Below are positions 7,104 to 46,834 of a stretch of 64,000 nucleotides of DNA, in pieces. Below the pieces are notes generated by a model that saw only the letters and a list, made by a program, of their open reading frames with translations, had not been told where the DNA came from and searched no databases. This DNA is from Solirubrobacteraceae bacterium. GTDB taxonomy: Bacteria; Actinomycetota; Thermoleophilia; Solirubrobacterales; Solirubrobacteraceae. The stretch spans positions 4,502-68,501 of the forward strand of contig DATLGB010000223.1 of assembly GCA_035540675.1 (NCBI GenBank), in the 5' to 3' direction. The position numbers and the translations under genes are program-made. The first letter of the stretch is position 1. Each line of letters starts with the position of its first letter.

Positions 7104-7114
7104 CCTCCCCCGGG

Positions 7115-7852
<738 letters not shown>

Positions 7853-7855
7853 CGC

Positions 7856-14514: not shown

Positions 14515-14542
14515 GAGTGGCCCGCCCCGAGGAGAACCACGG

Positions 14543-26880: not shown

Positions 26881-27678
26881 CTAGGCGGGCGGCTCGCCGT
26901 AGCGGGCGGGGGCGACGAACGCCATCCGGCCCGCCCCCGCGCCCCGGCCCGGCTCGCGCAGATGGGCAGGGATCTCCACCTGCTTGCGGTGGTCCTCGCC
27001 GAACAGCGCCAGCGGGTCGCCGCACATCTCCACGATGCGCGAGACCGTGCGCTCGCCGATCTGCTCGGTCAGCGCGTCGGGCTTTAGGTTCGTCGTCAGC
27101 AGCAGCGCCCGCTCCTCCTCGTAGCGCGCGTTGACGATCGAGTACAGCTGCTCGAGGACCCACTCGCTCGTGCGCTCGGCGCCGACGTCGTCGACGTGCA
27201 GCAGGTCGACGGCCGCGAGCGTGTCGAGCAGCTGCAGGTAGGACAGGTCGGAGCCCTCGTCGTAGGTCTTGCGCAGCTCGGCCAGCAGGCGCGGCAGCGA
27301 GTAGATGACGACGCTGCGCCCGCGCTCGAGCGCCGCGCGCGAGATCAGCATCGCCAGCGTCGTCTTGCCCGTCCCGACGTCGCCGGTCAGCCACAGCCCC
27401 TTGCCGGCATCGAGGTTGGCGTCGAGGTCGCGGACGTACTGGCGCACCGGCCGCACGACGTGGTCGTCGATCAGCGTCACCGGCGGCGTGGCGAAGGACA
27501 CGTGGCGGTACTTCTTCGGGATCACCGACGACAGCCGGCGCGCCTTCGCCTTGGCGATCCGCTCCGGCCGGCAGCGGCACTCGCGCGTCGTCCGCGCCTC
27601 CGTGTCGACGACGAAGCCGGAGCCGTCGCACTCGTCGAAGCGGCAGCGCGAGCCGCCGTGGTCGACGGTGAGCCTCAT
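26881..27678 (-). CDS. DnaC/DnaI/IstB-like AAA+ helicase-loader candidate with N-terminal Cys cluster
   Basis: ATGA overlap with the dnaB stop. CRFDECDGSGF..CRC zinc-like N-terminus, Walker A GDVGTGKTT, Walker B LLHVDDVG. Confidence 0.75.
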   Translation of the reverse strand: MRLTVDHGGSRCRFDECDGSGFVVDTEARTTRECRCRPERIAKAKARRLSSVIPKKYRHVSFATPPVTLIDDHVVRPVRQYVRDLDANLDAGKGLWLTGDVGTGKTTLAMLISRAALERGRSVVIYSLPRLLAELRKTYDEGSDLSYLQLLDTLAAVDLLHVDDVGAERTSEWVLEQLYSIVNARYEEERALLLTTNLKPDALTEQIGERTVSRIVEMCGDPLALFGEDHRKQVEIPAHLREPGRGAGAGRMAFVAPARYGEPPA

Positions 27679-32679: not shown

Positions 32680-34010
32680 GGCCTCCCGATCCGGTCGAGC
32701 AGCAGGTGCGAGATCGTGGCGTGCGCCTCCTGCAGGCGCGGGACGTAGTCGCCGGGGACGCCGATGTGGTGGTCAAGCCAGCCGGCGCCGGCCAGACGGC
32801 CCCCGTCGTAGCCCGTGACGGCGACGGTCAGCATCCCGCGGCGGCGGGCCTCCTCGAGCCCGGCAAGGACGTTCGGCGACGACCCGCTCGTGGAGAACGC
32901 GATCGCCACGTCGCGCGCGCGGCCGAGCGGGATCAGCTGCCGGGCCCAGACGTTCTCGAAGCCGACGTCGTTGGCCACCGCGGTGACCGTCGGCGCGTCG
33001 TCGACGAGCGCGACCGCCGGCCAGCCCGCCGCCTGCGCGTCGAAGGCGAGGTCCTGGGCGTCGGTGGCCGAGCCGCCGTTGCCGAACGCGAGCAGGCGGC
33101 CGCCGGCGTCGAGGCGCGCGCGCACGGCCGCGGCGCACGCCGCGATCGCGTCGGCGTCGATCGTCCGCCGCAGCTCGATGGCGTCGCGCCCCTTGCGCAG
33201 TGTCGACGCGCGCACGTCGGCCAGGACGGCCTCGAGGTCGCGCTCGTCACCTTCGAGGAACGGATACAGGAAGCCCGTCGCCTCCGCCGGCGCGGCCGCG
33301 CGCTCGAGGCGCTCCAGCGCGACGCCGGCGTGGCAGAGCAACCGGTCGCCGGGTGCGACGGGCCCGACGAGGTCCACCGCGACCGTCTCGCGCGCGCCGC
33401 CGTGCTCGACGACCGCCGCCGTCCCCTCCACCGCGACGACCTCGACCTCCACCGCCACGTCGCCGCAGGTCAGGCACGCGTCGTCGAGCAGCCCCGGGTG
33501 CTCGAAGAAGACGTGCACGAGCTCCCACAGCACGTGGTACGTCGTCTCCTGCACCTCCTGGACGATCTCGGGCGCGGCAGCGGGCACCACGAACGCGTGG
33601 TCGGCGGCGAGCCGCTCCGCGCCGGCACCGAGCGCGATCGTCAGCATGCCGCGCCGTCGCGCTTCCTCCAGGAACGCGTCCAGCCGGCCGGGCTCGTGCG
33701 CCATCCCGATCGCGATGTCCTGCGGTCCGCCGAACGCCAGCGCCCGCTCCGGGCCGCCGGCGGGCGCGAGCGCCGGCAGCGCCCGCTTGCCGACGATCAC
33801 GGGGTGCATGAACTCGACCGCCACGTGGGCGGCGTCCGTGACGGCGGCGCCCGCGCCGTGCGCGATCAGCACGCCGCCGCGCGCGAAGGCGCGGGCGAGG
33901 TCGTGGCAGGCGCGCGCCAGCCGGTCCTGCTCGCGCTCGAGGAACGCCTCGAGCACCCGCTCGCGCTCGGCGATCGCGGTGGCGCTGGGACTGGTGGCGG
34001 AGGGCGTCAT
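32676..34010 (-). CDS. Fusion protein: degenerate SIS domain, HypC/HupF-like OB domain, then GmhA-like SIS domain
   Basis: ATG 34010 (ATGA with the hypC stop); its stop overlaps the hypD start (ATGA). The N-terminal SIS lacks S/T motifs (HGAGAAVTDAAHVAVEF). Middle CLTCGDVAVEVEVVAV...GDRLLCHAGVALERL. C-terminal AFGNGGSATDAQDLAFD and AFSTSGSSPNVLAGLEEARRRGMLTVAVTG. Confidence 0.7.
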   Translation of the reverse strand: MTPSATSPSATAIAERERVLEAFLEREQDRLARACHDLARAFARGGVLIAHGAGAAVTDAAHVAVEFMHPVIVGKRALPALAPAGGPERALAFGGPQDIAIGMAHEPGRLDAFLEEARRRGMLTIALGAGAERLAADHAFVVPAAAPEIVQEVQETTYHVLWELVHVFFEHPGLLDDACLTCGDVAVEVEVVAVEGTAAVVEHGGARETVAVDLVGPVAPGDRLLCHAGVALERLERAAAPAEATGFLYPFLEGDERDLEAVLADVRASTLRKGRDAIELRRTIDADAIAACAAAVRARLDAGGRLLAFGNGGSATDAQDLAFDAQAAGWPAVALVDDAPTVTAVANDVGFENVWARQLIPLGRARDVAIAFSTSGSSPNVLAGLEEARRRGMLTVAVTGYDGGRLAGAGWLDHHIGVPGDYVPRLQEAHATISHLLLDRIGRP

Positions 34011-34285
34011 TCGATCGAGGACGACCGCAGGTCGTCGAGCTCCTGCTCGAAGGCCTCGCCGAGCTCGACGAGGAACGCGCGCGTGGCCTCCGCCTCGGCC
34101 TCGTCGATCTTCGACATCGCGAAGCCGACGTGGATGAGCACCCAGTCGCCGACGTCGACGGCGTCGGGGCCGCCGCTGAGCAGGCCGACGTTGATCGCAC
34201 GCCGCACCCCCGAGACCTCCGCCTTGGCGATGTGGTGCTCGGGGTCGACCCACTCTACGATCTGGCCGGGAATTCCTAGGCACAT
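34007..34285 (-). CDS. hypC: Hydrogenase maturation chaperone HypC
   Basis: MCLGIPGQIVEW...GDWVLIHVGFAMSKIDEAEA. C-terminal part of ORF 34007..35698. Confidence 0.9.
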   Translation of the reverse strand: MCLGIPGQIVEWVDPEHHIAKAEVSGVRRAINVGLLSGGPDAVDVGDWVLIHVGFAMSKIDEAEAEATRAFLVELGEAFEQELDDLRSSSIE

Positions 34286-36462
34286 GACGCACGCATCCTC
34301 GCGGCCGCGACCGCAGCTTGTCCATAGGCGATCCCGCCGTCGTTCGGAGGCAGACGCCGGTGGGTCAGGACGCGGAACCCCGCCGCCTCGAGCCGCCGGC
34401 GCAGCGACCGGGCCAGCCGCCGGTTCTGCAGGCACCCCCCGCTGAGCGCGACGGTGTCGCCCGGAGTCGCCGCGGCGGCGCAGGCGGCGGCGAAGGCCGC
34501 GGCGAGGCCCTCGTGCACCGCGGCGGCGATCGCCGCCGCCGGGCGCCCGCCCCGCAGATCGTCGTGCGCGGCCCGCACGAGGTCGCTGCCGCGGATCACG
34601 CCGCCGGCGACCCGGCAGGGATAGGCGCGCGCCTCGGCGTCGCCAGCGAGCTGCTCGAGCTCGATCGCGGCCTGCCCCTCGTAGCTGATCACCTCGCGCA
34701 CGCCGAGCAGCGCCGCGACCGCGTCGAGCAGCCGCCCGGCGCCCGACGACGGGGGCGCGTTGACCGCCAGCGACTGGCGAACGAGCCTCCAGCGCTCCCA
34801 CGGCACCGGGCGCCCCGCCCGCTCGAGGTGCGCCGCGGCCGCGCGCCACGGCTCGCGGATGGCGGCCTCGCCTCCGGGCAGCGGCACCGGCTCGAGGTGC
34901 GCGACGCGCTCGAAGTCCGCCAGGTCGCACCGCAGCAGCTCGCCGCCCCAGAGCGTGCCGTCGGTCCCGTAGCCCGTCCCGTCGAGCACGATCGCCAGCG
35001 CGGGCGCCGTCTCGCCGTGCTCGGCCAGGCAGGCGGCGGCGTGCGCGTGGTGGTGCTGCACGCCGACGAGCTCGGCCTCCTGCTCCAGCGCCCAGCGCGT
35101 CGAGCGGTACTCGGGGTGCAGGTCGTGCGCGACGACCGCCGGCCGAATGCCGAGCATCTCCAGGTACAGGCGCAGGTCGTCGCCGAAGGCGAGCACCGCC
35201 GCCTCCGAGGAAAGGTCGCCGAGGTGCCCCGACGGGAACGCGCGCGCCCCGACCGCGACGCAGAACGCGCTCTTGAGGTCGGCTCCGGCGGCCACCAGCG
35301 GCTCCGGCGCCGCCAGCGGCAACGACAGCGGCGCCGGCGCCAGCCCGCGCGAGCGCCGCAGCGGATGCGCCGCCCGCACCACCGAGTCCTCGCAGCGCCG
35401 CTGGATTGGGCGGTCGTGGCCGAGGAAGGCGTCCGCGATGTCGCGCAGCCGGTCGTGCGCCTCGTCGTCGCCGACCGCGATCGGCTCGTCGCCGCGGTTG
35501 CCGCTGGTCATCACGAGCGGGCCGCCGAAGTCGTGCGCCAGCAGGTGGTGCAGCGGCGTGTAGGGGAGCATCACCCCGAGCTCCCGGGCGCCGGGCGCGA
35601 CCGACGGCGCGACGGGCGCGGCGGCCAGGCGCTCGAGCAGCACGATCGGCCGTGATGGCGCTTGCAACAGCGCCCGCTCGTCCGGCGATACCCGGCACAG
35701 CGCGTCCGGGTCGCCCGTCATCAGCGCGAACGGCTTGGCGTCGCGCGCCTTGCGCGCGCGCAGCCGCGCGACCGCGAGCTCATCGGCGGCGTCGCAGGCG
35801 AGATGCCAGCCGCCGAGGCCCTTCACGGCGAGGATGCCGCCGGCGCGCAGCACCGCGACCGCCTCCTCGAGCGGCATCGACAGGCGCGGCCCGCAGGCGG
35901 GACAGGCGATCGCCTCGGCGTGGAAGCGGCGGTCGGCCGGATCCTCGTACTCCGCCCGGCAGTCGCCGCAGAGGGGAAAGCCGGCCAGGGTCGTCCGCTC
36001 GCGGTCGTAGGGCAGCGCCCGCACGATCGTGAAGCGCGGCCCGCAGTTGGTGCAGGTCAGGAACGGGTAGCGGTGGCGCCGGTCGGCCGGGTCGAACAGC
36101 TCCCGCAGGCAGTCGGCGCACGTCGACAGGTCCGGCCCGATCGCCGGCGCCCCGGCGCCCCCGGCGCTCGTCGCGACGGCGAACCGGCGCTCTCCGCTCG
36201 GCGCCACGGACGTCTGCACGACGCCGTCGAGGGCGGCCGCGGCGGGCGCCTCGGCCACGAGCGCGGTGGCGAACGCATCCAGCGCCGCCGGCGACCCCTC
36301 GACCTCGACCTCGACGCCGGCGGCGGTGTTGCGGACATGGCCGCCGAGGCCGTGCCGGACGGCCAGGCCGTGCACGAAGGGCCGGAACCCCACGCCCTGC
36401 ACGATGCCCGTGATCTCGAGGCGGCGGCGCGCGGCCGGGACTGCGTCGGAGGCGACCGCCAC
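34276..36462 (-). CDS. hypF: Carbamoyltransferase HypF
   Basis: Acylphosphatase-like GIVQGVGFRPFV. Zn fingers CADCLRE..CTNCGPRFT and CGDCRAEY..CPACGPR. YrdC-like and Kae1-like C-terminal domains. Confidence 0.95.
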   Translation of the reverse strand: MAVASDAVPAARRRLEITGIVQGVGFRPFVHGLAVRHGLGGHVRNTAAGVEVEVEGSPAALDAFATALVAEAPAAAALDGVVQTSVAPSGERRFAVATSAGGAGAPAIGPDLSTCADCLRELFDPADRRHRYPFLTCTNCGPRFTIVRALPYDRERTTLAGFPLCGDCRAEYEDPADRRFHAEAIACPACGPRLSMPLEEAVAVLRAGGILAVKGLGGWHLACDAADELAVARLRARKARDAKPFALMTGDPDALCRVSPDERALLQAPSRPIVLLERLAAAPVAPSVAPGARELGVMLPYTPLHHLLAHDFGGPLVMTSGNRGDEPIAVGDDEAHDRLRDIADAFLGHDRPIQRRCEDSVVRAAHPLRRSRGLAPAPLSLPLAAPEPLVAAGADLKSAFCVAVGARAFPSGHLGDLSSEAAVLAFGDDLRLYLEMLGIRPAVVAHDLHPEYRSTRWALEQEAELVGVQHHHAHAAACLAEHGETAPALAIVLDGTGYGTDGTLWGGELLRCDLADFERVAHLEPVPLPGGEAAIREPWRAAAAHLERAGRPVPWERWRLVRQSLAVNAPPSSGAGRLLDAVAALLGVREVISYEGQAAIELEQLAGDAEARAYPCRVAGGVIRGSDLVRAAHDDLRGGRPAAAIAAAVHEGLAAAFAAACAAAATPGDTVALSGGCLQNRRLARSLRRRLEAAGFRVLTHRRLPPNDGGIAYGQAAVAAARMRASCA

Positions 36463-36468
36463 CCGTAC

Positions 36469-36822
36469 CTACGGCGTCGCCGGCCGCGGCAGGTCGGCGC
36501 GCGAGTCGATGTCGGCGGGCGAGGCGGCGGCCGTGCCGGCCTCCGTCGGGCCGCCCGAGGTCGTCTGCTCGGCGGGTGGCGCCGGCTCGCCCACGACCTC
36601 CTGCAGCGCGGTGGCCACCTGGGTGAGCGCCGCGTTGACGTCGCCGAGCGCCTGGCCGATCGGCGCCGTCTGCGACTCGATCGCGCGCACGCCGAACGTC
36701 ACGAGGCCGAGGGTCTTGGAGATGTTGCGCAGCGTCCGGGCGATCGCGATCAGGTAGCCCGCGAGCACGACGACGAGCAGCAGGACCTCGACGAGCGTGA
36801 GGACGATCAGCAGGGTGTTCAC
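36469..36822 (-). CDS. Small single-pass membrane protein, paralog 4 of 4 (117 aa)
   Basis: GTG 36822 (GTGA with the upstream stop). VNTLLIVLTLVEVLLLVVVLAGYLIAIARTLRNISK..., Pro/Ala-rich tail. Ends 7 nt before the hypF start. Confidence 0.6.
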   Translation of the reverse strand: MNTLLIVLTLVEVLLLVVVLAGYLIAIARTLRNISKTLGLVTFGVRAIESQTAPIGQALGDVNAALTQVATALQEVVGEPAPPAEQTTSGGPTEAGTAAASPADIDSRADLPRPATP

Positions 36823-37091
36823 GATTGGCCCCTCCCGGCTTGGCGATGGCGCTCGACTTCCTCGGCGAGCTCGGTTCCACGGGCGACGGTCGCCCCCAGC
36901 AGGTACGACGTCTGCGTGTTCTGGGCGACGAGCTTGCCGGTGTCCCACAGCACGGCCACGCCCTCGTCGATCCGCTTGACCGTGCGGCGCAGCGCCTCGA
37001 GGAGGGCCCACACCACCAGGGCCACCACGAGACCCACCGCGAGCGTGATCCACCACGCGGTCTGGTTCGACGTCATCGCGATCACGGTCAT
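36819..37091 (-). CDS. Small single-pass membrane protein, paralog 3 of 4 (90 aa)
   Basis: Track ORF. ATGA overlap. AWWITLAVGLVVALVVWALLEALRRTVKRIDEG... Confidence 0.6.
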   Translation of the reverse strand: MTVIAMTSNQTAWWITLAVGLVVALVVWALLEALRRTVKRIDEGVAVLWDTGKLVAQNTQTSYLLGATVARGTELAEEVERHRQAGRGQS

Positions 37092-37360
37092 ACGAGCCCC
37101 AGCTTCTTGAGGTAGCCGACGGCGAGGCCCGGAACGGCGCCGCCGAGGCGGCGGGTCGTGGCGAGCTGCTCGACGCCGTCGAGGTTGGTGGCGATGCCCA
37201 CGCCGGCCTGCAGGATGTCCTTCGCGTAGGAGTCGATCTCGCGCGCGGGCGCCATGATCCGCTGGAAGAGCGCGATCACGACGGCGAGCACCACGACGCC
37301 GAGCACGAGCCCGACGATCGCGAGCACGGCGCCGGCGGTCGACACGGCCAGGACGCTCAT
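37088..37360 (-). CDS. Small single-pass membrane protein, paralog 2 of 4 (90 aa)
   Basis: ATG 37360 (ATGA overlap). MSVLAVSTAGAVLAIVGLVLGVVVLAVVIALFQRIMAPAREID... Confidence 0.6.
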   Translation of the reverse strand: MSVLAVSTAGAVLAIVGLVLGVVVLAVVIALFQRIMAPAREIDSYAKDILQAGVGIATNLDGVEQLATTRRLGGAVPGLAVGYLKKLGLV

Positions 37361-37608
37361 CCGAACAGCTTCTCCCGCGCGGCGGCGAGGCTGCGCGTTA
37401 TGCGGTCGACGGTGTGGTTGGTCGTCCGGACCTCCCACAGCGGGTCCGTGTTCGCCGCCGCGCCCGCCAGGGCGCGCGTGATGTCCCCCGCCTGGCGCAC
37501 GATGCGCCGGCCCTCGCCGATGATCACCAGCAGCAGCGTCGCCGCGATCAGCACGACCACGAGCCCGACGCCCCAGCCGACGTACCAGCCGTAGGAGAGC
37601 GCGGTCAC
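37357..37608 (-). CDS. Small single-pass membrane protein, paralog 1 of 4 (83 aa)
   Basis: GTG 37608 (GTGA overlap with the DUF1059 stop). VTALSYGWYVGWGVGLVVVLIAATLLLVIIGEGRRIVRQAGDI... Confidence 0.55.
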   Translation of the reverse strand: MTALSYGWYVGWGVGLVVVLIAATLLLVIIGEGRRIVRQAGDITRALAGAAANTDPLWEVRTTNHTVDRITRSLAAAREKLFG

Positions 37609-37790
37609 TTCGACGGGAGGTCGCGGATCGCGGAGCGCGCGTAGCGGGCCAGCGTCGACGACTGCGAGAGGTCGACGCCGTGGACCTCCTTGGCGTGCTC
37701 GACCGCCTTCGCGAGGACCTCCTCCTCGGTCTCGCCCCGCACCTCGGCCTTGCACAGGACGCCGGCGTCCGCGCACTTGAAGCTCTTCAC
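37605..37790 (-). CDS. DUF1059-type small metal-binding protein (61 aa)
   Basis: GTG 37790 inside ORF 37605..37841. (M)KSFKCADAGVLCKAEVRGETEEEVLAKAVEHAKEVHG. Confidence 0.7.
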   Translation of the reverse strand: MKSFKCADAGVLCKAEVRGETEEEVLAKAVEHAKEVHGVDLSQSSTLARYARSAIRDLPSK

Positions 37791-37891: not shown

Positions 37892-39283
37892 GTGGCGACG
37901 CGAGCGAGGACGTCCGAGAAGACTCCGGCCGAGCGGCTGCTCGACGCCCTCGGCCCGGTCGAGGGGTTCAACCCCGACCATGGCGACTTCGGGTCACCGG
38001 CGCGGATGACGATGGAGGACTACCTCGCGCCCCACGCCGTCGCCGACGAGTCGACGCGCCTCGGCCCGCTCGAGAAGGTGCACCTCTTCTGGTTCGCCGG
38101 GATGAGCTGCGACGGCTGCAGCGTCGCGGTCACCGGCGCGCAGGCGCCGACCCTCGAGGGGCTGCTGATGGGCGCCCACCCGGGCCTGCCGCGCGTCGTG
38201 CTGCACCACCCGGTGGTCAACCTCGAGGCCGGCCCGGCCTACGTCCGCGCGGCCGAGCAGGCGCTCGCGGGAACGCTCGACGCGCCGTACGTGATCGTGC
38301 TCGAGGGTTCGATCAGCGACGAGACGATCCCGTACGCGTTCGGCGGCTACTGGGCGGGCCAGGGCGAGGAGCCCTGGGGGCCCGACGGCGAGCAGCGGAC
38401 CGTCACGGCCGACGAGTGGATCGCACGCATGGCCGACGGCGCCGCGGCGATGATCGCCATCGGCACGTGCGCCACCTGGGGCGGCATCCCGTCGGCGGCC
38501 GGCAACCCGACGGGGGCCATGAGCCTGATGGACTTCCTCGGCCGCGACTACCGCAGCACCTTCGGGGTGCCGGTCATCAACGTCCCGGGCTGCCCGCCGA
38601 TCGGCGACAACTTCACGGAGGCCGTCGCCGCGGTCGTGTACTTCCTGCAGGGCTTCGGGCCGCTGCCGGAGTTCGACGAGCTCGGACGGCCGGCCTGGCA
38701 GTTCGGCGAGACGGTGCACCGCCACTGCACGCGCGGCGCGTACTACGAGGAGGGCAACTTCGCGAAGGAGTACGGCGACAAGGAGTGCCTCGTCGAGCTC
38801 GGCTGCTGGGGCCCGGTCGTCAACTGCAACATCACCTCGCGCGGCGCCATCAACCACCACGGCGGGTGCATGAACGCCGGCGGCCCCTGCATCGGCTGCA
38901 CGATGCCCGGCTTCCCCGACAAGTTCACGCCGTTCTACAAGGCGCCGCCGGGCTCGAAGGTCTCCAGCACGATGTCGCGGATGCTCGGCTCCTTCATCCG
39001 CCCGCTGCGCGAGTACTCGAACGAGCACCTCAACCGGGAGGTGCGCTGGGACCTCGAGGGCCACGTCCCCAGCGGGTGGGCGCGGCGCCAGGAGGAGCCG
39101 GGGCCCATCCGGGCCGTCGGGCACCGCTTCTACGACCGGATGCGCCAGTCGACCGACGGCGCACGGCGCTCCGGCGAGACGTGGGGCAAGCGCGACGAGT
39201 TCACGTTGATGAAGGACCCGTCGCTGGATCGCCGCCTCCCGGGCGGCGAGGAGGAGACGCTCACCATCGACGAGGGGCGCTAG
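37892..39283 (+). CDS. [NiFe]-hydrogenase small subunit, no Tat signal, long hydrophilic C-terminal extension
   Basis: GTG 37892, 7 nt after GGGAGGGAG (track start 37874 also possible). FWFAGMSCDGCS, GTCATWGGIP, PGCPPIGDN, HRHC..C, CLVELGCWGPVVNC, GGCMNAGGPCIGCTMPGFPD. No RRxF motif. Confidence 0.9.
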   Translation: MATRARTSEKTPAERLLDALGPVEGFNPDHGDFGSPARMTMEDYLAPHAVADESTRLGPLEKVHLFWFAGMSCDGCSVAVTGAQAPTLEGLLMGAHPGLPRVVLHHPVVNLEAGPAYVRAAEQALAGTLDAPYVIVLEGSISDETIPYAFGGYWAGQGEEPWGPDGEQRTVTADEWIARMADGAAAMIAIGTCATWGGIPSAAGNPTGAMSLMDFLGRDYRSTFGVPVINVPGCPPIGDNFTEAVAAVVYFLQGFGPLPEFDELGRPAWQFGETVHRHCTRGAYYEEGNFAKEYGDKECLVELGCWGPVVNCNITSRGAINHHGGCMNAGGPCIGCTMPGFPDKFTPFYKAPPGSKVSSTMSRMLGSFIRPLREYSNEHLNREVRWDLEGHVPSGWARRQEEPGPIRAVGHRFYDRMRQSTDGARRSGETWGKRDEFTLMKDPSLDRRLPGGEEETLTIDEGR

Positions 39284-39287
39284 CGCC

Positions 39288-41189
39288 GTGTGCTTCAAGA
39301 ACCTCCCCATCGAGTTCGACGAGGGCGGCGTCGCCACCCTGCGCGGCGGCATCCCCAATCCCTACGCCGTCGAGGTGTCAAAGCCCCACGTGGGGATGAC
39401 CAACGACGAGCAGCGCGAGCAGATCGAGCGCCTCGTCGCGTCCAACGGGCACATCCGCGAGATCAACATGGACCCGGTCACGCGCGTGGCCGGCGCCATC
39501 GCGCTCAACATCGCCGCCAACCTCGACGACGGCAAGTACCTCGACGCGCGCTCGCAGGCGACGCTGTTCCGCGGCTACGAGGTGATCCTCATGGGCCGCG
39601 ACCCGCGCGACGCGATCTTCGTGTCCTCGCGCGCGTGCGGCGTCTGCGGCGGCGTCCACGCTCACTGCTCGGCCTACGCGATCGAGATGGCGATGGGCGT
39701 CGCGCCGCCGCCGATGGGGACCGTCGTGCGCAACCTCGGCGAGGCCGCCGAGATGGGCTACGACAACCCGCTGCACCTCTACCTGCTGGCCGGCCCCGAC
39801 TACTCCGAGATCGTCGTCCGCGCCACCAACCCGGAGATCTGGGAGAAGGCGCAGACGTGGAAGTGCCCCGGCGCCGAGCACCACGGCTTCAAGACCATGG
39901 GCGAGCTGATGACGGCGCTGAACCCGCTGACGGGCCGCCTGTACCGCGAAGGACTGGACTTCACCCGGCTGGCGCGCGAGATGTTCGTGCTGCTGCACGG
40001 CAAGTACCCGCACCCGCAGGCGATCGTCCCCGGCGGCGTCACCTCGACGATCTCGCTGCAGACGCTCAACGAGTACCAGGCCAAGCTCGGGCGCATCTTC
40101 GACTACGCCCAGCGCCTGGTCGCGGTGTGGGACGACATCCCGGAGTTCTTCTACGAATGCGACGAGCGCTACAAGCTCGTCGGCTCGCGGCCGGTCAACC
40201 TCGTCGACACCGGCTTCTGGGACGACCCCTACGCCTACGACGCCACGTACGAGAACTGCAACGAGTGGGGCGCGCGCCGCTGGTCGACGCCGGGCGCGAT
40301 CATCGACGGCGAGCTGGTCACGACGCGCCTGACCGACCTCAACATGGGCATCGAGGAGTTCGTCGAGCACTCCTACTACGAGCAGTGGGCGGGCGACCGC
40401 TACGAGACCGACCCGCTCGGCAACCCGCTCTCGCCCTACCACGCGTGGAACAAGCAGACGCTGCCCAAGCCGAGCGGGCGCAGCTGGAAGGACAAGTACA
40501 CCTGGGCCTGCACGCCGCGCTGGGACCGCCACGTCGTCGAGGCCGGCGCCTACAACCGCCTGTTCATGACGGCGCTGGCGCAGCAGCAGCCCGAGAACGA
40601 CTTCATCGAGGCCACCGGCACCGGCATCCGCATGTCGATCCCCAAGGGCTACACGAAGGCCGCCGAGGCCGAGTGGCGGATCCCGGACTCCTGGAACGCG
40701 TTCGAGCGCAACCGGGGGCGCGCCTACCACTACCTGTTCTCGCAGCTCGTCGGCCTGTCGAGCCTGCTCGAGGCCTACAAGCTCTTCCGCGCGGGTGAGA
40801 CGCGGGTCGCCGCGCTGAACTCCAAGGAGCTCGAGAAGGCGATGCCGCGCGACGAGCGGCGCGGCGTCGGCTTCTGGGGCGCCGGCCGGGGCTGGCTGAC
40901 GCACCACATCGTCATGGACAACGGCAAGATCACCAACTACCAGATCAACACCCCGTCGACCATCAACGCCTCGCCGCGCGACCCGTGGGGACAGCCCGGG
41001 CCGTACGAGCAGGCGGTCCAGAACACGCCGATCCTCGAGAAGTTCTCGAGTCCCGACGAGTTCACGTCGATCGACATGCTGCGGGCGCTGCGGTCGTTCG
41101 ACCCGTGCATGCCGTGCACGACCCACACGGCCACCGGCAACGGCACCGTGATCGGCCAGGTGAACACCTGCTCGTGCGGCGCCGACTGA
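39288..41189 (+). CDS. [NiFe]-hydrogenase large subunit (subgroup unassigned)
   Basis: L1 RACGVCGGVHAHC, L2 RSFDPCMPCTTH followed by a 20-aa cleavable-type tail. GC3-rich from the GTG at 39288. Atypical DPVTRVAGA and GAGRGWLTHH. Confidence 0.9.
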   Translation: MCFKNLPIEFDEGGVATLRGGIPNPYAVEVSKPHVGMTNDEQREQIERLVASNGHIREINMDPVTRVAGAIALNIAANLDDGKYLDARSQATLFRGYEVILMGRDPRDAIFVSSRACGVCGGVHAHCSAYAIEMAMGVAPPPMGTVVRNLGEAAEMGYDNPLHLYLLAGPDYSEIVVRATNPEIWEKAQTWKCPGAEHHGFKTMGELMTALNPLTGRLYREGLDFTRLAREMFVLLHGKYPHPQAIVPGGVTSTISLQTLNEYQAKLGRIFDYAQRLVAVWDDIPEFFYECDERYKLVGSRPVNLVDTGFWDDPYAYDATYENCNEWGARRWSTPGAIIDGELVTTRLTDLNMGIEEFVEHSYYEQWAGDRYETDPLGNPLSPYHAWNKQTLPKPSGRSWKDKYTWACTPRWDRHVVEAGAYNRLFMTALAQQQPENDFIEATGTGIRMSIPKGYTKAAEAEWRIPDSWNAFERNRGRAYHYLFSQLVGLSSLLEAYKLFRAGETRVAALNSKELEKAMPRDERRGVGFWGAGRGWLTHHIVMDNGKITNYQINTPSTINASPRDPWGQPGPYEQAVQNTPILEKFSSPDEFTSIDMLRALRSFDPCMPCTTHTATGNGTVIGQVNTCSCGAD

Positions 41190-41202: not shown

Positions 41203-41688
41203 GTGATCCTCGTCGCCGGGGTCGCCGAGCTCTACCAGGGCGACCTCGACCTCGGGCGCGTCGCCGTCGCGCGGCTGCAGGAGGCCGGCCTCGGCGACGA
41301 CGTGCGGGTGGAGGAGCTCTCCTACGGCGCCGTGGCCGTGACGCAGCGGCTGCAGGAGCTGCGGCCGGACGCACTCGTCCTGATCGCGGCGCACCCGCGC
41401 GGCCGCGAGCCCGGCAGCGTCGAGCGGCGCGACGTCGGCCCCAGCGACCTCCCCGCGGCCGAGCTGCAGACGGCCATCGGCGACGCGATCACCGGCTACG
41501 TGACGGTCGACCTGCTCGTCGAGGTGGCGACGGCGCTGGAGGCGCTGCCGCCGCGAGTGGTCGCCATCGAGGTCGAGCCGGCGCGGGTCGAGCCGGTCGA
41601 CGAGCTGTCCGAGCCGGCGCGGGCGGGGCTCGAGCGGGCGCTCGAGCTCGTGCGCACGGAGGTCGAGCGCCTGCGGGCGCGCAGCTAG
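41203..41688 (+). CDS. Degenerate HyaD/HupD-family hydrogenase maturation protease-like protein
   Basis: Fold-level resemblance (ILVAGVAELYQGDLDLGRVAV...ALVLIAAHP...). By my alignment the GNxxxxD(D/E)GxG motif and the Glu/Asp/His metal ligands are not conserved. Confidence 0.55.
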   Translation: MILVAGVAELYQGDLDLGRVAVARLQEAGLGDDVRVEELSYGAVAVTQRLQELRPDALVLIAAHPRGREPGSVERRDVGPSDLPAAELQTAIGDAITGYVTVDLLVEVATALEALPPRVVAIEVEPARVEPVDELSEPARAGLERALELVRTEVERLRARS

Positions 41689-42419
41689 AGCGCCGGCACG
41701 ATCTCGTCCGGCGGCTCGAGCCGGGCGAGGTGCTGCGGGCGGACGGCGATCCGCCGCCCGTCGGGCTGCTCGATCACGAGCGCACCGTCGCGCAGCACGC
41801 TCGTCGCGGTGCCGGTGATCTGGACTCCATCCGGCCAGGTGGGGATGAGGTGCGCCCGGACCGGACGGCCGAGCGTCGCGCAACGCTCGCGATAGCGCGC
41901 GAGGGCGGCGTCGTCGGGCTCCTGGAGGCGCTCCACGGCCGCCGCCAGGCGGGCGATCAGCTCGCCGCGCGGGGAGGGCGCGTCGAGCACGAGCAGGTTG
42001 ACGACCGCCCACTCCACGCCGGTGGGACCGAGCCCCGCGTGCCCGGCCACGTCGGCCAGCCGGCGCTCGGTCGCCCACACCTGGTCGGGCCACTCGATCG
42101 CCGCAGCGGGATCGACCGCGTCGACCACGGCGGCCGCGGCGGCGACGAACAGCCAGCCCTCGTCGTCGGGCGCGAGCTGCGGCCGCAGCAGCAGCGAGAA
42201 GCACAGGTCGCGGCCCGGGCGAGGCGTCCACGGCAGGCCGCCGCGGCCGCGCGCGGCGGCCTGGTAGTCGGCGGTGACGACGGCGCCCGCAGGCCCGCCG
42301 GCGCGCGCCCAGGCGACGGCGTCGGCGTCGGTCGACATGACGGCGGGATAGGTGCGGACGGGGCGATCGCCGAGCGCGCGCGCGAGCGCGTCGGGGGTGA
42401 GGTCGTCGCTCAGCGCCAC
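41685..42419 (-). CDS. Biotin/lipoate protein ligase (BirA catalytic domain)-like protein
   Basis: Track ORF. ADYQAAARGRGGLPWTPRPGRDLCFSLLLRP resembles the GRGRxGRxWxSPxGxxL motif, but degenerate. Confidence 0.5.
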   Translation of the reverse strand: MALSDDLTPDALARALGDRPVRTYPAVMSTDADAVAWARAGGPAGAVVTADYQAAARGRGGLPWTPRPGRDLCFSLLLRPQLAPDDEGWLFVAAAAAVVDAVDPAAAIEWPDQVWATERRLADVAGHAGLGPTGVEWAVVNLLVLDAPSPRGELIARLAAAVERLQEPDDAALARYRERCATLGRPVRAHLIPTWPDGVQITGTATSVLRDGALVIEQPDGRRIAVRPQHLARLEPPDEIVPAL

Positions 42420-43645
42420 GGCCCGGGATCACCGTGGTCGAGCGCCGCCTGCGCGAAGACGTCCTGCAGCCGCATCCACTGCGGGATGTGGAAGCGCGCC
42501 ATGGCGCGGCGGACGGCCTCGCGGAACGTCTCGGCCGTGTCAGCGTCGGTCGCCGCCAGCGCCTGCATCGCGCTCGCCACGAGCCGGTCGAGCGCGTCCG
42601 ACGGCAACTCGAGCAGGGCGCCGAGCCAGATCTGCGCGACGTCGGTGGGGTCGCGACGGGCGCGCGCGTGGACCGCTACCCACTCCGCGGCATCGGAGCG
42701 GCGGGCGTCGTCGCCGGCGTCGGCGCTGCGCAGCAGCTCCTCCCGCGCGAGCTGCTCGGCCGCGAGGTCGCCGGCGGCATCGAGGGCGGTGCCGAGGTCC
42801 TCGGCCTGCGGGACCCCCAGGCGCCGGATTAGCTCAGCCGCCTGCGCGCGCACCGGCTCGGCGGCGCCGGGCGCCGCGAGCGCCTGCCGCGCCGCCAGGC
42901 GCGCCCGTGGCGCGTCGCCCGCGCGCTCGAGCGCCAGCGCCAGGTTGGCCTTGGCCATCGCGAAGGCGTCGGGGCGCAGCGCGCGCGGGCTCGAGGCGAC
43001 GGCGACCGCGAACGCCTCGGTCGCGGCCTCGGGACGTCCCCCGGCCAGTCGCGCCAGCCCCAGCGCGTTGGCGGCGGCGGCGCGCCCGGGGGCGTCCCCC
43101 GCGCGCTCGCTCAGCTCCACCGCAGCCTCGAGTGCCGCCTCGGCACCGTCGGCGTCGCCGGCGTCGAGCCGCGCGGCGCCGAGCTCGCGCAGTGCGGCGG
43201 CGGCCTGCGCCGGCACGCGCCGCTCGTCGAGGCGCTCCACCGCCCGCTCGAGCACGCGGGCGGCGGCCTCGGCGCGTCCTCCCTCGCGCATCACCAGCCC
43301 GAGGTTGTACAGCGCGGCGCCCTCGTCGAGGGGCAGGCCGGCGGCGGCCAGCCCGGCGGCGGCGTGCTCGAGCGCCCGCTCGGCGACGTCGAGGCGGCCG
43401 GCGGCACGCAGCGTGGCGCCGAGCCCGTTGAGCGCCTTCGCCTGCTCCGGACGCGCGCCGCGCAGGCCGAACAGGCCGGCCGCGGTCGTGAACGCCTCCT
43501 CGGCGGCGTCGAGCGCGCCCTGCGCGAGGAGCACGCCTCCGAGGTGGAACTGGACGGTGGCGTGCTGGAGCGGGTGGCGGTGCGCGTCGTAGCGCTCCAG
43601 CCGCCCGCGCAGCTCGTCGAGGACGTCGTCGGGAGCCGCCGCCAC
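42410..43645 (-). CDS. TPR-repeat protein
   Basis: Track ORF. At least 6 Ala/Leu/Gly-rich TPR-like repeats (ALNGLGATLRAAGRLDVAERALEHA...). Unrelated C-terminal helical domain. Confidence 0.6.
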   Translation of the reverse strand: MAAAPDDVLDELRGRLERYDAHRHPLQHATVQFHLGGVLLAQGALDAAEEAFTTAAGLFGLRGARPEQAKALNGLGATLRAAGRLDVAERALEHAAAGLAAAGLPLDEGAALYNLGLVMREGGRAEAAARVLERAVERLDERRVPAQAAAALRELGAARLDAGDADGAEAALEAAVELSERAGDAPGRAAAANALGLARLAGGRPEAATEAFAVAVASSPRALRPDAFAMAKANLALALERAGDAPRARLAARQALAAPGAAEPVRAQAAELIRRLGVPQAEDLGTALDAAGDLAAEQLAREELLRSADAGDDARRSDAAEWVAVHARARRDPTDVAQIWLGALLELPSDALDRLVASAMQALAATDADTAETFREAVRRAMARFHIPQWMRLQDVFAQAALDHGDPGPWR

Positions 43646-44266
43646 CTAGGCGTCCGCGCCGCCGCGCGGCAGGCGCGTCTCGATCTGCAGCAGCCCGGCA
43701 TCGGCCGGCCCCGCGGCCGGGGGCGGGAAGGCGTCGATCTGCAGCAGCGTCGGTCCGGGCGGCGGATGCGGCAGGGCGTCGTCCTCCTCGACCTCCATGG
43801 CCACGAAGCCGGGCATGCCCTCGCGCAGCGCCTCCTCCACGCCCCGGCGCAGCGTGATCGTCGACGCGGTGCAGCCCGAGCAGGCGCCCGAGAGCCGCAC
43901 GCGCACGACGCCGCCGGCGGCCTCGACGACGCTGACGTCTCCGCCGTGCGAGTGCAGGTAGGGGCGAACGCCGTCCAGCGCCGCCTCGGCCGCCGCGCGC
44001 TCGTCGACGCCGACGGCATACGCGTTCAGCAGCCAGCCGACGGCCGGGTCGGCGCCGCGCAGCCGCTCGACCTCGTCCGGATGCAGCGCGGCGGCGAGGC
44101 GGTGGAGCGCGTGTCGGTGGACGGCGTCGATGCCGTCGAGCAGCGAGAAGACCCGCGCGCGCACGGCCTCGTCGAGAGCGTCGACCGCCCGCAGGTCGTC
44201 CTCCATGTCGTCGAGCAGGTCGTCGAAGTCCGTCACCGGCGAAGTACCTTTCGTCACTTGGACCAT
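43646..44266 (-). CDS. NifU C-terminal (Nfu)-domain protein
   Basis: ATG 44266 in the frame of ORF 43646..45682. VRPYLHSHGGDVSVVEAAGGVVRVRLSGACSGCTASTITLR. Confidence 0.75.
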   Translation of the reverse strand: MVQVTKGTSPVTDFDDLLDDMEDDLRAVDALDEAVRARVFSLLDGIDAVHRHALHRLAAALHPDEVERLRGADPAVGWLLNAYAVGVDERAAAEAALDGVRPYLHSHGGDVSVVEAAGGVVRVRLSGACSGCTASTITLRRGVEEALREGMPGFVAMEVEEDDALPHPPPGPTLLQIDAFPPPAAGPADAGLLQIETRLPRGGADA

Positions 44267-44731
44267 ACCGGCCGCATCATCGTCGCGTGCGTGGGCAACG
44301 TCCTGCGGCTCGACGACGGTTTCGGGTACGCGGTCGCCGAGCGGCTCGGCGACGTGCCGCCGGGCGTCGAGGTGCTGGAGAGCGGCATCGGCGGCATGAT
44401 GGTCGTGCAGGAGCTGCTGGTCGGGGCGGACGGGCTGATCATCGTGGACGCCGTGGACCGCGGCGCGGCGCCCGGCACGCTGTTCGTGATCGAGCCGGAG
44501 GTGGAGCCGCCGTCGCAGGTCGGCGACATCCACCTGTCCAACCCGGACAAGGTGCTGTCGCTGGCCGGCGGCCTCGGGTGCCTGCCTGAGCGGCTCCTGC
44601 TGGTCGGCTGCCAGCCGCGCGACGTCGAGGGCATGGGTCGCCGCCTGTCGCCGGAGGTCGAGCGAGCCGTGGACCTGGCGGTCGACCGCATCCACGCGAT
44701 CCTGCGCGAGTGGACGGCCGCCCCGGCGTGA
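44258..44731 (+). CDS. Hydrogenase maturation endopeptidase (HyaD/HupD/HybD family), canonical
   Basis: IIVACVGNVLRLDDGFGYAV, LIIVDAV, GDIHLSNP. The start is uncertain: TTG 44258 is the only in-frame start upstream of the first strand, and it overlaps the divergent NifU-like start by 9 nt. Confidence 0.75.
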   Translation: MDHTGRIIVACVGNVLRLDDGFGYAVAERLGDVPPGVEVLESGIGGMMVVQELLVGADGLIIVDAVDRGAAPGTLFVIEPEVEPPSQVGDIHLSNPDKVLSLAGGLGCLPERLLLVGCQPRDVEGMGRRLSPEVERAVDLAVDRIHAILREWTAAPA

Positions 44732-45336
44732 GCGGCGACCGCGAGCGCTGGAACGAGCGGCACGCCGCCGCGCTGGCCGCCGGGCGGGCGAACGGGCCGC
44801 CGAGCGCGTGGCTGCTCGAGCACGCCGGTGTCGTGGCGGCGCAGCCGCGCGGCCGCGCGCTCGACGTCGCGTGCGGCCTCGGCCGCAACGCGCTGCACCT
44901 CGCCGCGATGGGCTTTCGGGTTCTCGCCCTGGACGTCTCCGACGTCGCGGTCGAGCACGTGGCGCGGCGCGCGCGCGAGCGGGGTCTGGCGGTGGAGGCG
45001 CGACGGGTCGACCTCGGTCGCGAAGCGCTGCCGCCGGGACCCTTCGAGGTCGTCGTGGTCGCGTCCTTTTTGGACCGCCGCCTGCTCGGGCCGCTGGCGC
45101 GGGCGCTCGCCCCGGGCGGGCTGCTGCTCTACGACACGTTCCTGGCCGATGCGACGGCGACCTGCGGCCCGCGCGATCCCGCGCACGTCCTGCGGCCGGG
45201 GGAGCTCTCCGCGGCCTTCGCCGGCCTCGAGCGGCTGGATCTGCGCGAAGGCGCCCCGGCGCCCGGCGAGCGCGCGCGGGCCCGGCTCCTCGCCCGCCGC
45301 CGCGACGGGTTGCCGGTGTGTGTTCCAGACACGTAG
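44728..45336 (+). CDS. Class I SAM-dependent methyltransferase (TehB/TPMT-like)
   Basis: GTGA-coupled to the protease. WNERH...ALDVACGLGRNALHLAAMGFRVLALDVS. Confidence 0.7.
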   Translation: MSGDRERWNERHAAALAAGRANGPPSAWLLEHAGVVAAQPRGRALDVACGLGRNALHLAAMGFRVLALDVSDVAVEHVARRARERGLAVEARRVDLGREALPPGPFEVVVVASFLDRRLLGPLARALAPGGLLLYDTFLADATATCGPRDPAHVLRPGELSAAFAGLERLDLREGAPAPGERARARLLARRRDGLPVCVPDT

Positions 45337-45346
45337 AATCGCGCCC

Positions 45347-46099
45347 ATGAAGCTCGTCGTGGCCGGCAAGGGCGGCTCGGGGAAGACGTCCATCTCGGGG
45401 ACGCTGGCGCGCCTGCTCGCCCGCTCGGGCCGGCGCGTGCTGGCGATCGACGCCGACTCCAATCCGAACCTGTCGCTGACGCTCGGCATCCCGGCCGACC
45501 GCTTCAACTCGGTGCCCACGCTGCCGCGCGACCTGCTGCAGCGCACGCCGGATGGCGCACGGCTGTCGAAGTCGCTCGACGAGATCCGGTCCTCGCACTC
45601 CCTCGACGGGCCCGACGGCGTCAGCCTGCTCGTCATGGCCCACCCGCAGCACGCGGGCACCGGGTGACTGTGCTCCATGCACGCTACGGTCCGTAGCGTC
45701 ATCGAGGTGTCAGGCGAGGGTCCCGCGGACGTGACGATCCTCGACACGGAAGCGTCGCCGGAGCACCTCTCGCGCGGGACGGCGATGCACGCCGACGCGA
45801 TGCTCGTGGTCGTCGAGCCCTACTTCAAGTCGCTCGAGACGGGCCGGCGGATGGCGGCGCTCGGCACCGACCTCGGGCTGCCGCGCGTCGCGCTCGTGGC
45901 CAACAAGATGCGCGACGAGCGCGACGAGGCCGCCGTGCGCGAGTTCGCCGAGCAGCACGGGCTCGAGGTGGCGGGGACCATCCCCTTCGACGAGGCGATG
46001 CCGGCCGCCGAGCGCGCCGGCGTCTCACCGCTCGACCACGATCCCGGCGCGCCGAGCGTCGCGGCGATCGGCGAGCTCGCCCGGAGCTTCGTGCGATGA
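45347..46099 (+). CDS. CooC/AcsF-like MinD-family Ni-insertion ATPase with in-frame TGA (codon 107) replacing the first Cys of the CxC metal site; probable selenoprotein (alternatively a pseudogene)
   Basis: Tail of track ORF 44828..45667 and ORF 45677..46099 share one frame. Joined: MKLVVAGKGGSGKTS (deviant Walker A)...LLVMAHPQHAGTG-U-LC-SMHATVRSV...ILDTEASPEHLSRGT...VVVEP. 250 aa, typical CooC length. U-x-C aligns with CooC Cys-x-Cys. Confidence 0.7.
45681..45699 (+). promoter_or_regulatory. Candidate bacterial SECIS hairpin (CooC-like gene)
   Basis: UGA-N13-ACGCUAC(G)[GUC](C)GUAGCGU. 7-8 perfect bp, apical GGUCC/GUC loop. Confidence 0.6.
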
Positions 46100-46461
46100 G
46101 CGACCTCGAGCGGCTGAAGATCCTCGACGAGGTCCTGCAGGCGATGTACTGGATGCACGCCGAGGGCATCTCGTCGGTACCGACCGCGGACGAGCTCTCG
46201 CGCTTCCTGGGCGTGCCGTCGGGGACGCTCGCGCCCCACCTGGAGGGCTTCGCCGACGACGGCCTGCTCGAGCGCGAGGCGGGCGGCTACCGCCTCAGCG
46301 CCGAGGGGGAGCAGCGCGGCAAGCGGACGTTCGCCGACGAGTTCGCGGGCCTGACCGGCGCCTCGCACGGCGAGTGCGACGAGAACTGCTGGTGCCACGA
46401 TTCGCCGGAGGCGGCGGCGAGCTGTCTGGAGGAGCGCAGCGGGCATGCCCACCAGCACTGA
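46096..46461 (+). CDS. Small DtxR-like winged-helix protein with Cys/His-rich C-terminal tail (metal sensor or metallochaperone candidate)
   Basis: ATGA-coupled to the CooC-like gene. LQAMYWMHAEGISSVPTADELSRFLGVPSGTLAPHLEGFADDGLLERE... then HGECDENCWCHDSPEAAASCLEERSGHAHQH. Confidence 0.55.
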   Translation: MSDLERLKILDEVLQAMYWMHAEGISSVPTADELSRFLGVPSGTLAPHLEGFADDGLLEREAGGYRLSAEGEQRGKRTFADEFAGLTGASHGECDENCWCHDSPEAAASCLEERSGHAHQH

Positions 46462-46834
46462 GCCGGCGGCGCCGCTGCTGCCGCGCAACTTCCTGCGCCC
46501 GTGCGTCCTGCTGTTGCTGCGCGAATCCCCCGCTCACGGTTACGACCTGCTCGAGCGGCTCGCGGCCTTCGGGTTCGCCAAGCAGGATCCGGGCGGCCTG
46601 TACCGCGCGCTGCGGGCGCTGGAGGACGAGGGCCTCGTGCGCTCCTCGTGGGAGGCGTCCGACCAGGGCCCGGACCGCCGCATCTACGAGATCACGCGCG
46701 CGGGCGCCGAGCACCTGCACGAGCACGCGCTCGCGCTGCAGTCGACCGCCGACGTGCTGCACGCGTTCCTTGGCCGCTACGAGGAGTTCGTCGCGCTGCC
46801 GGAGCGCCCCCGCGCGGCGCGGGCGCTGCGCTGA
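46445..46834 (+). CDS. PadR-family transcriptional regulator
   Basis: LLLLRESPAHGYDLLERL...GGLYRALRALEDEGLVRSSWE...RRIYEITRAG. Confidence 0.85.
   Translation: MPTSTEPAAPLLPRNFLRPCVLLLLRESPAHGYDLLERLAAFGFAKQDPGGLYRALRALEDEGLVRSSWEASDQGPDRRIYEITRAGAEHLHEHALALQSTADVLHAFLGRYEEFVALPERPRAARALR

Follow-up and report, generated by a model that had tools for sequence, protein, structure and literature searches.

A [NiFe]-hydrogenase without the textbook proton-transfer glutamate in a Solirubrobacteraceae bacterium, and its probable place in the group 1l/1m lineage

To what kind of [NiFe]-hydrogenase does a pair of structural genes belong when the large subunit departs from the motifs by which such enzymes are commonly recognised? 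The question is raised by a locus within a stretch of 64,000 nucleotides from a Solirubrobacteraceae bacterium (contig DATLGB010000223.1, positions 4,502 to 68,501; this whole stretch is referred to below as the window), which has a G+C content of about 74%. Here, the small-subunit gene (hhmS/hylS-type) runs on the forward strand from 37892 to a stop at 39283 and is adjacent to the large-subunit gene (hhmL/hylL-type), which runs from a start at 39288 to 41189. An original prediction, made from the sequence alone, held that the enzyme may belong to a poorly characterised or new subgroup. Poorly characterised it is, but it is not new: its motifs are those of group 1l and its gene cluster is that described for group 1m (PMC9561532). 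The enzyme very probably belongs to the 1l/1m lineage, a sister radiation of the actinobacterial group 1h, and to the Actinomycetota-only subclade named group 1m (HhmSL) within it. It is a further member of an already named 1l/1m group and not a new class.

The large subunit consists of 633 amino acids (aa) and matches PF00374 (Pfam). Its N-terminal motif, DPVTRVAGA, begins at residue 62 and is thus preceded by 61 residues, against the estimate of about 60. The two Ni-binding motifs, RACGVCGGVH and DPCMPCTTH, begin at residues 115 and 605, and the second of them is followed by a 20-aa tail, TATGNGTVIGQVNTCSCGAD, that ends in NTCSCGAD, all as originally predicted. The Ni/Fe-ligand cysteines are all present (Cys117, Cys120, Cys607 and Cys610), and the subunit also keeps Glu98 of FRGYE and the Asp of SFDPC. 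The counterpart of EAPRGxLxH reads GAGRGWLTHH, beginning at residue 531, in which the active-site arginine (Arg534) is kept, as had been noticed, and the glutamate is replaced by Gly531. The Glu and His of the RxEGH motif are missing, their places being taken by Ala68 and Ala70, with Ala68 aligning with Glu28 of Hyd-1. This absence had been reported with the reservation that the motif might have been misregistered, and misregistration can be ruled out. In HMMER alignments RVAGA is set against RIEGH in E. coli Hyd-1 and against RIVGS in 5AA5 (the solved C. necator actinobacterial-type enzyme, group 1h), the N-terminal motif keeps this register when 51 large subunits are aligned with MAFFT, and in neither case does a Glu/His pair lie within a few residues of RVAGA.

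Conservation of these motifs was counted among the 120 closest 90%-identity cluster representatives, each 632-637 aa long. DP[VI]TR[VI]AG[AS] occurs in all 120, RACGVCGGVH and DPCMPCTTH in 119 each, and G[FW]WGAGRG in 113. Because they are kept in 113-120 of 120 homologues, the deviations are fixed features and not products of chance or sequencing error; a protein identical to the window large subunit is in fact already public (P0001). Alignment further shows VAGA to be clade-specific. The loss of the Glu/His pair as such does not single out this clade, since the pair is also lost in group 1h (RIVGS in 5AA5). A separate observation concerns P0110, a cluster of 24 sequences at 72% identity to the window large subunit, in which the second Ni-binding motif reads DPCMPCTTQ, with Gln for His at the canonical C-terminal cleavage/Mg-ligand position of an otherwise intact enzyme.

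Group 1l was described by Ortiz et al. 2021 (10.1101/2020.08.06.239558) as a separate lineage whose large subunit is less than about 40% identical to that of 1h, with a substituted proximal Fe-S ligand relative to 1h, five small transmembrane (TM) genes (HylTM1-5) that "often" lie between the small- and large-subunit genes, and a linked Rieske-type protein, HylE. One full-length relative among the 50%-identity representatives, P0121, has this defining arrangement, its contig carrying in order the small subunit, five small open reading frames (ORFs), the large subunit, two ORFs, a Rieske gene and HycI. It is 57% identical to the window large subunit, and its DPVTRVAGA, RACGVCGGVH and DPCMPCTTH motifs are the same. 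These three motifs are shared with group 1l (HylSL; Ortiz et al. 2021, Hymenobacter roseosalivarius), as are a C-terminal CxC tail, an all-Cys proximal cluster (CDGC), a small-subunit C-terminal module, homologous small TM proteins, a 161-aa ORF after the large-subunit gene and a CooC-type gene, often with an in-frame UGA; group 1l large subunits are 54-58% identical to that of the window. The window enzyme is likewise separate from 1h (39-42% identity) and its proximal ligand is substituted. It differs in that its TM genes do not lie between the structural genes but upstream on the other strand, in that there are four of them instead of five, in that BirA-like, TPR and DUF1059 genes have been added, and in that no Rieske HylE is linked. 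A tblastn search found no Rieske match inside the hydrogenase cluster, and the sole Rieske gene in a scan of the window ORFs (13040-13711) is about 24 kb upstream, where it forms part of a set of Rieske and cytochrome b/c fusion genes (bc1/qcr-like; 13040-15409, forward strand) outside the hydrogenase cluster.

The arrangement seen in the window is that reported for group 1m (hhmSL) by Ray et al. 2022 (ISME J; PMC9561532), who recovered it from metagenome-assembled genomes (MAGs) of Actinobacteriota and from that phylum only. In their clusters the two structural genes are adjacent and are "typically" accompanied by a HybD peptidase, an Fe-S assembly protein, a CooC-type ATPase, TPR and BirA proteins and DUF1059, along with two small single-TM proteins of about 82-92 aa that have no known domain, and 5AA5 was the best modelling template. 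Every component listed is present in the window cluster: adjacent structural genes, a HycI/HybD-type protease, a NifU-type assembly protein, a CooC-type ATPase, TPR, BirA-like and DUF1059 proteins and small single-TM proteins. The host is a member of the Actinomycetota, and 5AA5 is again the top template. What differs is the number of small TM proteins (four in the window, two in the published clusters), an in-frame UGA in the window CooC gene, and a gene for an S-adenosylmethionine (SAM)-dependent methyltransferase between the protease and CooC genes.

The same placement is obtained from neighbour-joining trees, in which the window clade and P0121 stand together apart from 1h (bootstrap 96) and the window falls in an Actinomycetota-only clade (bootstrap 98). 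A genome scan, based on one genome per species, yielded 59 loci in two identity tiers. The upper tier (66-88%) is confined to Actinomycetota; its closest relatives are Actinomycetota ATA bin20 (88%) and Baekduia sp. (87%), and its other hosts include Thermoleophilaceae, Gaiellales, Pseudonocardiaceae, Nocardioides, Nitriliruptorales, Acidimicrobiales, Euzebyaceae and Mycobacteriales. A place for the window host among the Solirubrobacterales or a related lineage of Thermoleophilia is probable. Wherever the small subunit is in the locus, the structural genes of this tier are adjacent, most of its loci have BirA-like and TPR genes downstream, and, save for one weak match in locus L026, none has a linked Rieske gene. 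The lower tier (54-58%) is found in Acidobacteriota, Chloroflexota, Rubrobacteraceae, Gammaproteobacteria and Rhizobiaceae, and its loci mostly have a gap of about 1.5 kb between the structural genes and a Rieske gene. Several candidates were set aside during this work. P0189 (728 aa, RECGICGEHH), tried as an insertion-rich 1l anchor, was traced by homologue search to a Sulfolobaceae enzyme; P0145 and P0151 are Crenarchaeota enzymes (Hyperthermus, Pyrodictium) with a normal RIEGH; P0127 and P0132 are on contigs too short for classification; and L067 (39% identity), taken as a divergent paralogue, is a frameshift-ridden assembly of a 1l locus.

Some points weigh against the assignment to group 1m and against the function that it suggests. 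The trees were built by neighbour-joining, and in them monophyly of 1l relative to 1m is weakly supported (bootstraps 24-52); 1m may be either the sister of 1l or a branch inside it. The label itself follows from gene-cluster composition, host phylum and topology, compared with a published description, and the 1l/1m boundary is a naming question. No purified enzyme is known from either group 1m or group 1l, and the affinity, O2 tolerance, membrane attachment and electron acceptor of the enzyme are what we infer them to be; the acceptor may differ from that of 1l because no Rieske HylE partner is linked. Usage in the literature is also divided, as a 2026 Antarctic paper calls an Acidothermales/Sporichthyaceae enzyme "group 1l" (PMC13554262); a homologue from an Acidothermales MAG, at 73% identity to the window protein, is encoded in a 1m-type locus with adjacent structural genes. 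Literature searches on "hhmL" returned nothing relevant beyond Ray et al. Given the uneven naming, the enzyme is called group 1m here in the sense of Ray et al., with 1m understood as a subclade of the 1l radiation in Actinomycetota.

Could the enzyme instead represent a truly new subgroup, distinct from both published groups? It was matched to the 1m enzymes of Ray et al. by their description and not by their sequences, and the excess of small TM proteins over the published two would fit such a view. Against this, none of the eight cluster components listed is missing from the window, the host phylum and best template agree with those of 1m, Actinomycetota MAGs and isolates account for more than 100 database clusters at 72-90% identity, and the motifs are identical to those of a classic 1l enzyme, all of which makes a new subgroup very unlikely. 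The original prediction had itself stated that it would be refuted by confident assignment to a characterised subgroup in which these residues recur, and the placement comes close to this, given RIVGS in 1h and the published descriptions of 1l and 1m.

The small subunit is encoded by an ORF with PF01058 and PF14720 domains (Pfam), of 463 aa if started at the GTG at 37892 or 469 aa if started at the GTG at 37874. As originally described, it has no twin-arginine translocation (Tat) signal, RR being absent from the first 80 residues, and it continues beyond PGFPDKFTPF for 115 hydrophilic residues (35% charged, mean hydropathy -1.17). No TM helix is predicted, because the 19-residue Kyte-Doolittle mean never exceeds its peak of 1.2. 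The cluster ligands are Cys 79, 82, 199, 240, 285, 305, 311, 318, 332, 339 and 342, which together with His282 give a set of 4+4+4. These ligands suffice for three [4Fe-4S]-type clusters, of which the proximal one is all-Cys. The earlier statement that all canonical ligands are present is correct in that the set is full, but it is not the textbook set with a three-Cys [3Fe-4S] medial site, as the medial cluster has four Cys, like that of 5AA5 and the NiFeSe enzymes. The proximal motif reads SCDGCS, with Cys82 at the position of the group 1h aspartate (Asp in HofK of 5AA5, GCDGDS in 1h); CDGC is found in 47 of 47 1l/1m small subunits and CDGD in 1h. Compared with HofK, the subunit is longer by about 45 aa at the N-terminus and about 75 aa at the C-terminus. 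Both extensions are conserved, and the C-terminal module, NRExRWD..PSGW..P..HxFY[DE][KR], is kept across 1l and 1m.

Where would such an enzyme reside? Four tandem genes for small single-TM proteins lie upstream on the reverse strand (36469-36822, 36819-37091, 37088-37360 and 37357-37608), encoding products of 83-117 aa with one hydrophobic segment apiece and no Pfam family above cut-off. Each of them has a different HylTM of the classic 1l locus as its best cross-locus match: 37357-37608 matches HylTM1 (40% identity), 36819-37091 matches HylTM2 (32%), 37088-37360 matches HylTM4 (40%), and 36469-36822 matches HylTM5 (E 3e-11) and HylTM3 (E 9e-9; shared motif FGVRAIExxT) at 32-36% identity. The E-values, 1e-7 to 1e-11 overall, are indicative only, because the local database was small and TM segments were included. 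Judged by these matches, the small TM proteins are homologues of the 1l HylTM anchors, and group 1m looks like a 1l enzyme whose anchor genes have moved from between the structural genes to a divergent upstream operon. A rearranged 1l cluster with four HylTM genes kept speaks for a membrane-tethered architecture common to 1l and 1m. In locus L004 the four-gene small-TM set occurs twice in tandem (6055-8304, reverse strand), giving eight ORFs where the window has one set.

The absence of a Tat signal keeps the enzyme on the cytoplasmic side. A published AlphaFold3 model of the 1l enzyme places five TM helices beside the HylS C-terminal extension and the distal cluster (PMC13554262), and this model, the four HylTM homologues and the conserved C-terminal extension make membrane tethering likelier than a free soluble state. 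The enzyme is thus probably cytoplasm-facing but membrane-tethered, and of the earlier view of a cytosolic enzyme the cytoplasmic location is retained and solubility is not. On the cytoplasmic face, the small TM proteins would tether the enzyme to the membrane by docking on the conserved C-terminal extension of the small subunit. Electrons from H2, probably trace or atmospheric, would pass through the three clusters to the respiratory chain, and protons would leave by an alternative route, the canonical Cys-to-Glu exit being absent (Glu to Ala here; Glu to Val in 1h). Maturation would be carried out by HypCDEF and the HycI protease, with a CooC-type ATPase standing in for HypB, of which no gene is visible.

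Mutation of the proton-transfer glutamate abolishes activity in standard enzymes, and the loss of this residue could accordingly mark a catalytically crippled or regulatory, H2-sensing hydrogenase. The substitutions at the RxEGH motif (Glu to Ala, His to Ala) and at EAPRG (Glu to Gly) can be read in this way, and two regulator-like genes, for a helix-turn-helix (HTH) protein and a PadR protein, are found nearby. Loss of function has parallels among relatives, since a sister clade of large-subunit homologues (P0124, P0130 and P0134), full-length and positioned beside the 1l/1m clade (bootstrap 86), did lose the Ni-ligand cysteines. In these and in P0147, which falls with 1h, the first Ni-binding motif reads SRTRGLSSGAH or GRACGTDSVAH and the second SFDP, SFDV or SFDS with no Cys; judging from these motifs, all four appear to be non-catalytic hydrogenase-like proteins. 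The window enzyme is of another kind, as its Ni and Fe-S ligands and catalytic Arg are kept in 119-120 of 120 homologues, and the C-terminal tail, the HycI protease and the Hyp machinery are present. Sensor hydrogenases are not known to have a cleaved tail, and no histidine kinase is linked to the cluster. The ligands, Arg534 and the 20-aa tail with HycI are features that would be expected of a competent [NiFe]-hydrogenase, the RxEGH glutamate being the expected feature that is missing. Moreover, 1h enzymes, in which Val replaces this Glu, are active, O2-insensitive, low-turnover H2 oxidisers (table in PMC11023054), and H. roseosalivarius, an isolate that carries 1l, has been described as oxidising atmospheric H2, with experimental validation (PMC13554262). 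Because 1h is active without the Glu and a 1l isolate oxidises H2, the Cys-to-Glu exit is dispensable in this super-lineage and another route must exist. In cold-desert metagenomes hhmL reads match hhyL and hylL reads in abundance, and with this the sensor or inactive enzyme becomes highly improbable.

The placement in 1l/1m leaves room for features beyond the missing glutamate. A column scan of 42 1l/1m large subunits, for residues that are invariant in 1m (100%), reach at least 96% in 1l and seldom or never occur in standard enzymes, returned Cys2, Cys324, Cys628, Cys630, Asp11, Tyr26, Glu221, Glu262, Asp307, Glu356 and Arg414. The four cysteines are invariant in 42 of 42 and absent from 1h and standard enzymes. 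Cys2 directly follows the start Met, and Cys628-x-Cys630 is among the last residues of the tail that is supposed to be cleaved off (NTC[SA]CG[AV][DE]). In three 1h sequences position 221 is also Glu and position 262 is Asp. The tail may be more than a maturation tag, forming an extra metal or Ni-delivery site with Cys2 and Cys324, and a clade-specific carboxylate may serve as a new proton exit. That 1l/1m enzymes differ mechanistically from all characterised [NiFe] enzymes in ways beyond the missing Glu is nevertheless considered rather unlikely.

The nearest solved relative of both subunits is 5AA5, at 4.7e-144 for the large subunit, where Hyd-1 follows at 7.5e-56, and at 1e-99 for the small subunit. 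An AlphaFold2 model of the large subunit, built with 45 close homologues, has a mean predicted local distance difference test score (pLDDT) of 69.8, with values below 50 for residues 1-92 and the tail; Foldseek with this model again returned 5AA5 first (1e-41, TM-score 0.70-0.80). The enzyme has in common with group 1h the lack of a Tat signal, the three-[4Fe-4S]-type ligand set, the loss of the RIEGH Glu/His pair (DPITRIVGS in 5AA5) and nearby NifU, SIS and Hyp genes. The 1h large subunits of C. necator pHG1, Streptomyces, Kitasatospora and M. intracellulare, however, are only 39-42% identical to that of the window, and small-subunit identity to 1h is about 46%. The 1h Ni-binding motifs are RICGICGDNH and DPCLPCGVH, as confirmed in the C. 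necator and M. intracellulare sequences, and the original prediction was right that the first of these is not matched by RACGVCGGVH. The 1h proximal cluster is held by three Cys and one Asp, whose role has been described (PMC11023054), where the window has Cys. Group 1h also keeps the Glu in its EAVRG motif, has shorter termini and no TM partner genes, and has DUF5947 and DUF6084 as accessory genes; neither family turned up among the cluster ORFs in general scans, which included no search aimed at them. Standard group 1 uptake enzymes (E. coli Hyd-1 and Hyd-2, Desulfovibrio) are more distant, at 22-30% identity. They share the fold, the four Ni cysteines, the Arg of xxPRG, the Glu of FRGxE, the Asp of DPC and the small-subunit cluster positions, and they differ in being Tat-exported and periplasm-facing, in having RIEGH and EAPRG motifs and in usually having a [3Fe-4S] medial cluster. 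An ordinary group 1h (Hhy/actinobacterial-type) high-affinity hydrogenase with sequence drift would account for 5AA5 as the top PDB match in structure and sequence, for the traits shared with 1h loci and for the Actinomycetota host, but the low identity, the divergent Ni-binding motifs, the Cys in place of the defining Asp, the accessory families unmatched in those scans and the separate clade (bootstrap 96-98) make it exceedingly improbable, and plain 1h membership is already refuted at the subgroup level.

The genes around the enzyme complete the comparison with 1m and 1l loci. On the reverse strand, upstream of the small TM genes, are the maturation genes hypE (30461-~31474), hypD (31546-32679), hypC (34007-34282) and hypF (34276-36462), with, at 32676-34010, a fusion of about 444 aa in which SIS (GmhA-like) domains flank a HypC/HupF domain; the C. 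necator 1h locus encodes SIS and HypC as distinct proteins. The order of the hyp genes is the same in L004. The DUF1059 gene (37605..37790, reverse strand; 61 aa, PF06348 1.7e-16) is divergent from the small-subunit gene, and a scan of this divergent intergenic region for promoters and terminators found none. The 161-aa ORF (41203..41688, forward strand) is placed directly 3' of the large-subunit gene in 1m loci and 1l loci alike. It has only a weak likeness to proteases of hydrogenase maturation, its TIGR00072 match (2.8e-10) falling short of the curated cut-off, and no Pfam match. It is followed on the reverse strand by the BirA-like biotin-ligase homologue (41685..42419; 244 aa, M. tuberculosis BirA 3e-7), which is kept in 1m-type loci, the TPR protein (42410..43645; 411 aa, TPR_12 4.9e-19) and the NifU-domain Fe-S assembly protein (43646..44263; PF01106 4.9e-22). 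On the forward strand are the HycI/HybD-type maturation endopeptidase (44276..44731; TIGR00072 2.6e-33, PF01750 2.3e-17), the SAM-dependent methyltransferase (44710-45336), whose gene is missing between HycI and CooC in the 86%-identical locus L004, and the CooC-type Ni-insertion P-loop ATPase (45347..46099; 3KJE, C. hydrogenoformans CooC1, 1.3e-27). These are followed by genes for the HTH-like protein, of 121 aa with a Cys/His-rich C-terminus (...HGECDENCWCHDSPEAAASCLEERSGHAHQH), and the PadR-family regulator (together 46096..46834, forward strand). This pair adjoins the CooC gene in L004 and L003 also; L005, from an outlying large-subunit clade, carries CooC and PadR genes and an ORF of 152 aa. 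The pair may be a metal-responsive regulator of the cluster. Matching architecture was found in two homologous loci, one in Pseudonocardia kunmingensis (75% identity) and one in a MAG (86% identity). Beyond the cluster, the DnaB replicative helicase gene (27675-30353, reverse strand) is split by an intein with a LAGLIDADG homing-endonuclease domain.

The CooC gene has a feature of its own. An in-frame TGA at 45665-45667 (...HAGTG-[TGA]-LCSMHATVR...) aligns with Cys112 of C. hydrogenoformans CooC1, the first of the two Cys in its C-x-C metal-binding motif; CooC homologues of other loci have GC[LM]C at this position, and close relatives have TGC or TGT. The same column holds an in-frame TGA in 18 distinct loci, the window included, from four phyla, with the frame open downstream in each (positions listed beside that of the window, as locus:position: L007:6530, L012:16045, L015:11167, L016:15136, L031:7614, L032:1336, L034:7944, L039:1867, L040:6681, L041:548, L042:482, L046:6597, L047:6713, L054:6219, L057:8188, L060:18465, L064:6680 and L066:6642), and the frameshifted assembly L067 is a nineteenth case. 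The hosts are Thermoleophilaceae, Gaiellales, other Actinomycetota, Rubrobacteraceae, Acidobacteriota and Chloroflexota, and gene callers break the UGA-bearing genes into two ORFs. A hairpin at about 45681-45699, 14-33 nt 3' of the UGA, is kept through compensatory changes, with 79.7% of cells paired versus 18-45% in slid controls and double changes in four of seven pairs; its score was reached by 0 of 500 shuffles, a control that is not a probability. De novo RNAalifold on the post-UGA region gave another, shorter hairpin register, Rfam gave no match there, and minimum free energy differed marginally between selenocysteine-type and Cys-type CooC genes (p = 0.04). No selenocysteine machinery or tRNA-Sec gene was found within the window. 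The pattern is the classic signature of selenocysteine proteins with Cys homologues, and it suggests that 1l/1m clusters encode a selenocysteine-containing Ni-insertion ATPase, the in-frame UGA being probably read as selenocysteine to give a U-x-C protein. No report of selenocysteine in CooC was found in the searchable literature.

In desert and polar soils, groups 1l and 1m reportedly equal 1h in abundance, and they are believed to drive the oxidation of atmospheric H2. Across the 1h/1l/1m super-lineage, hydrogenases work without the textbook proton-transfer Glu, and those of 1l/1m lack the EAPRG Glu as well. Biochemical tests are feasible because there are cultured carriers with enzymes about 75% identical to that of the window, namely Pseudonocardia kunmingensis and Haloechinothrix halophila. 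The missing Glu residues therefore make these hydrogenases a natural test case for alternative proton pathways.

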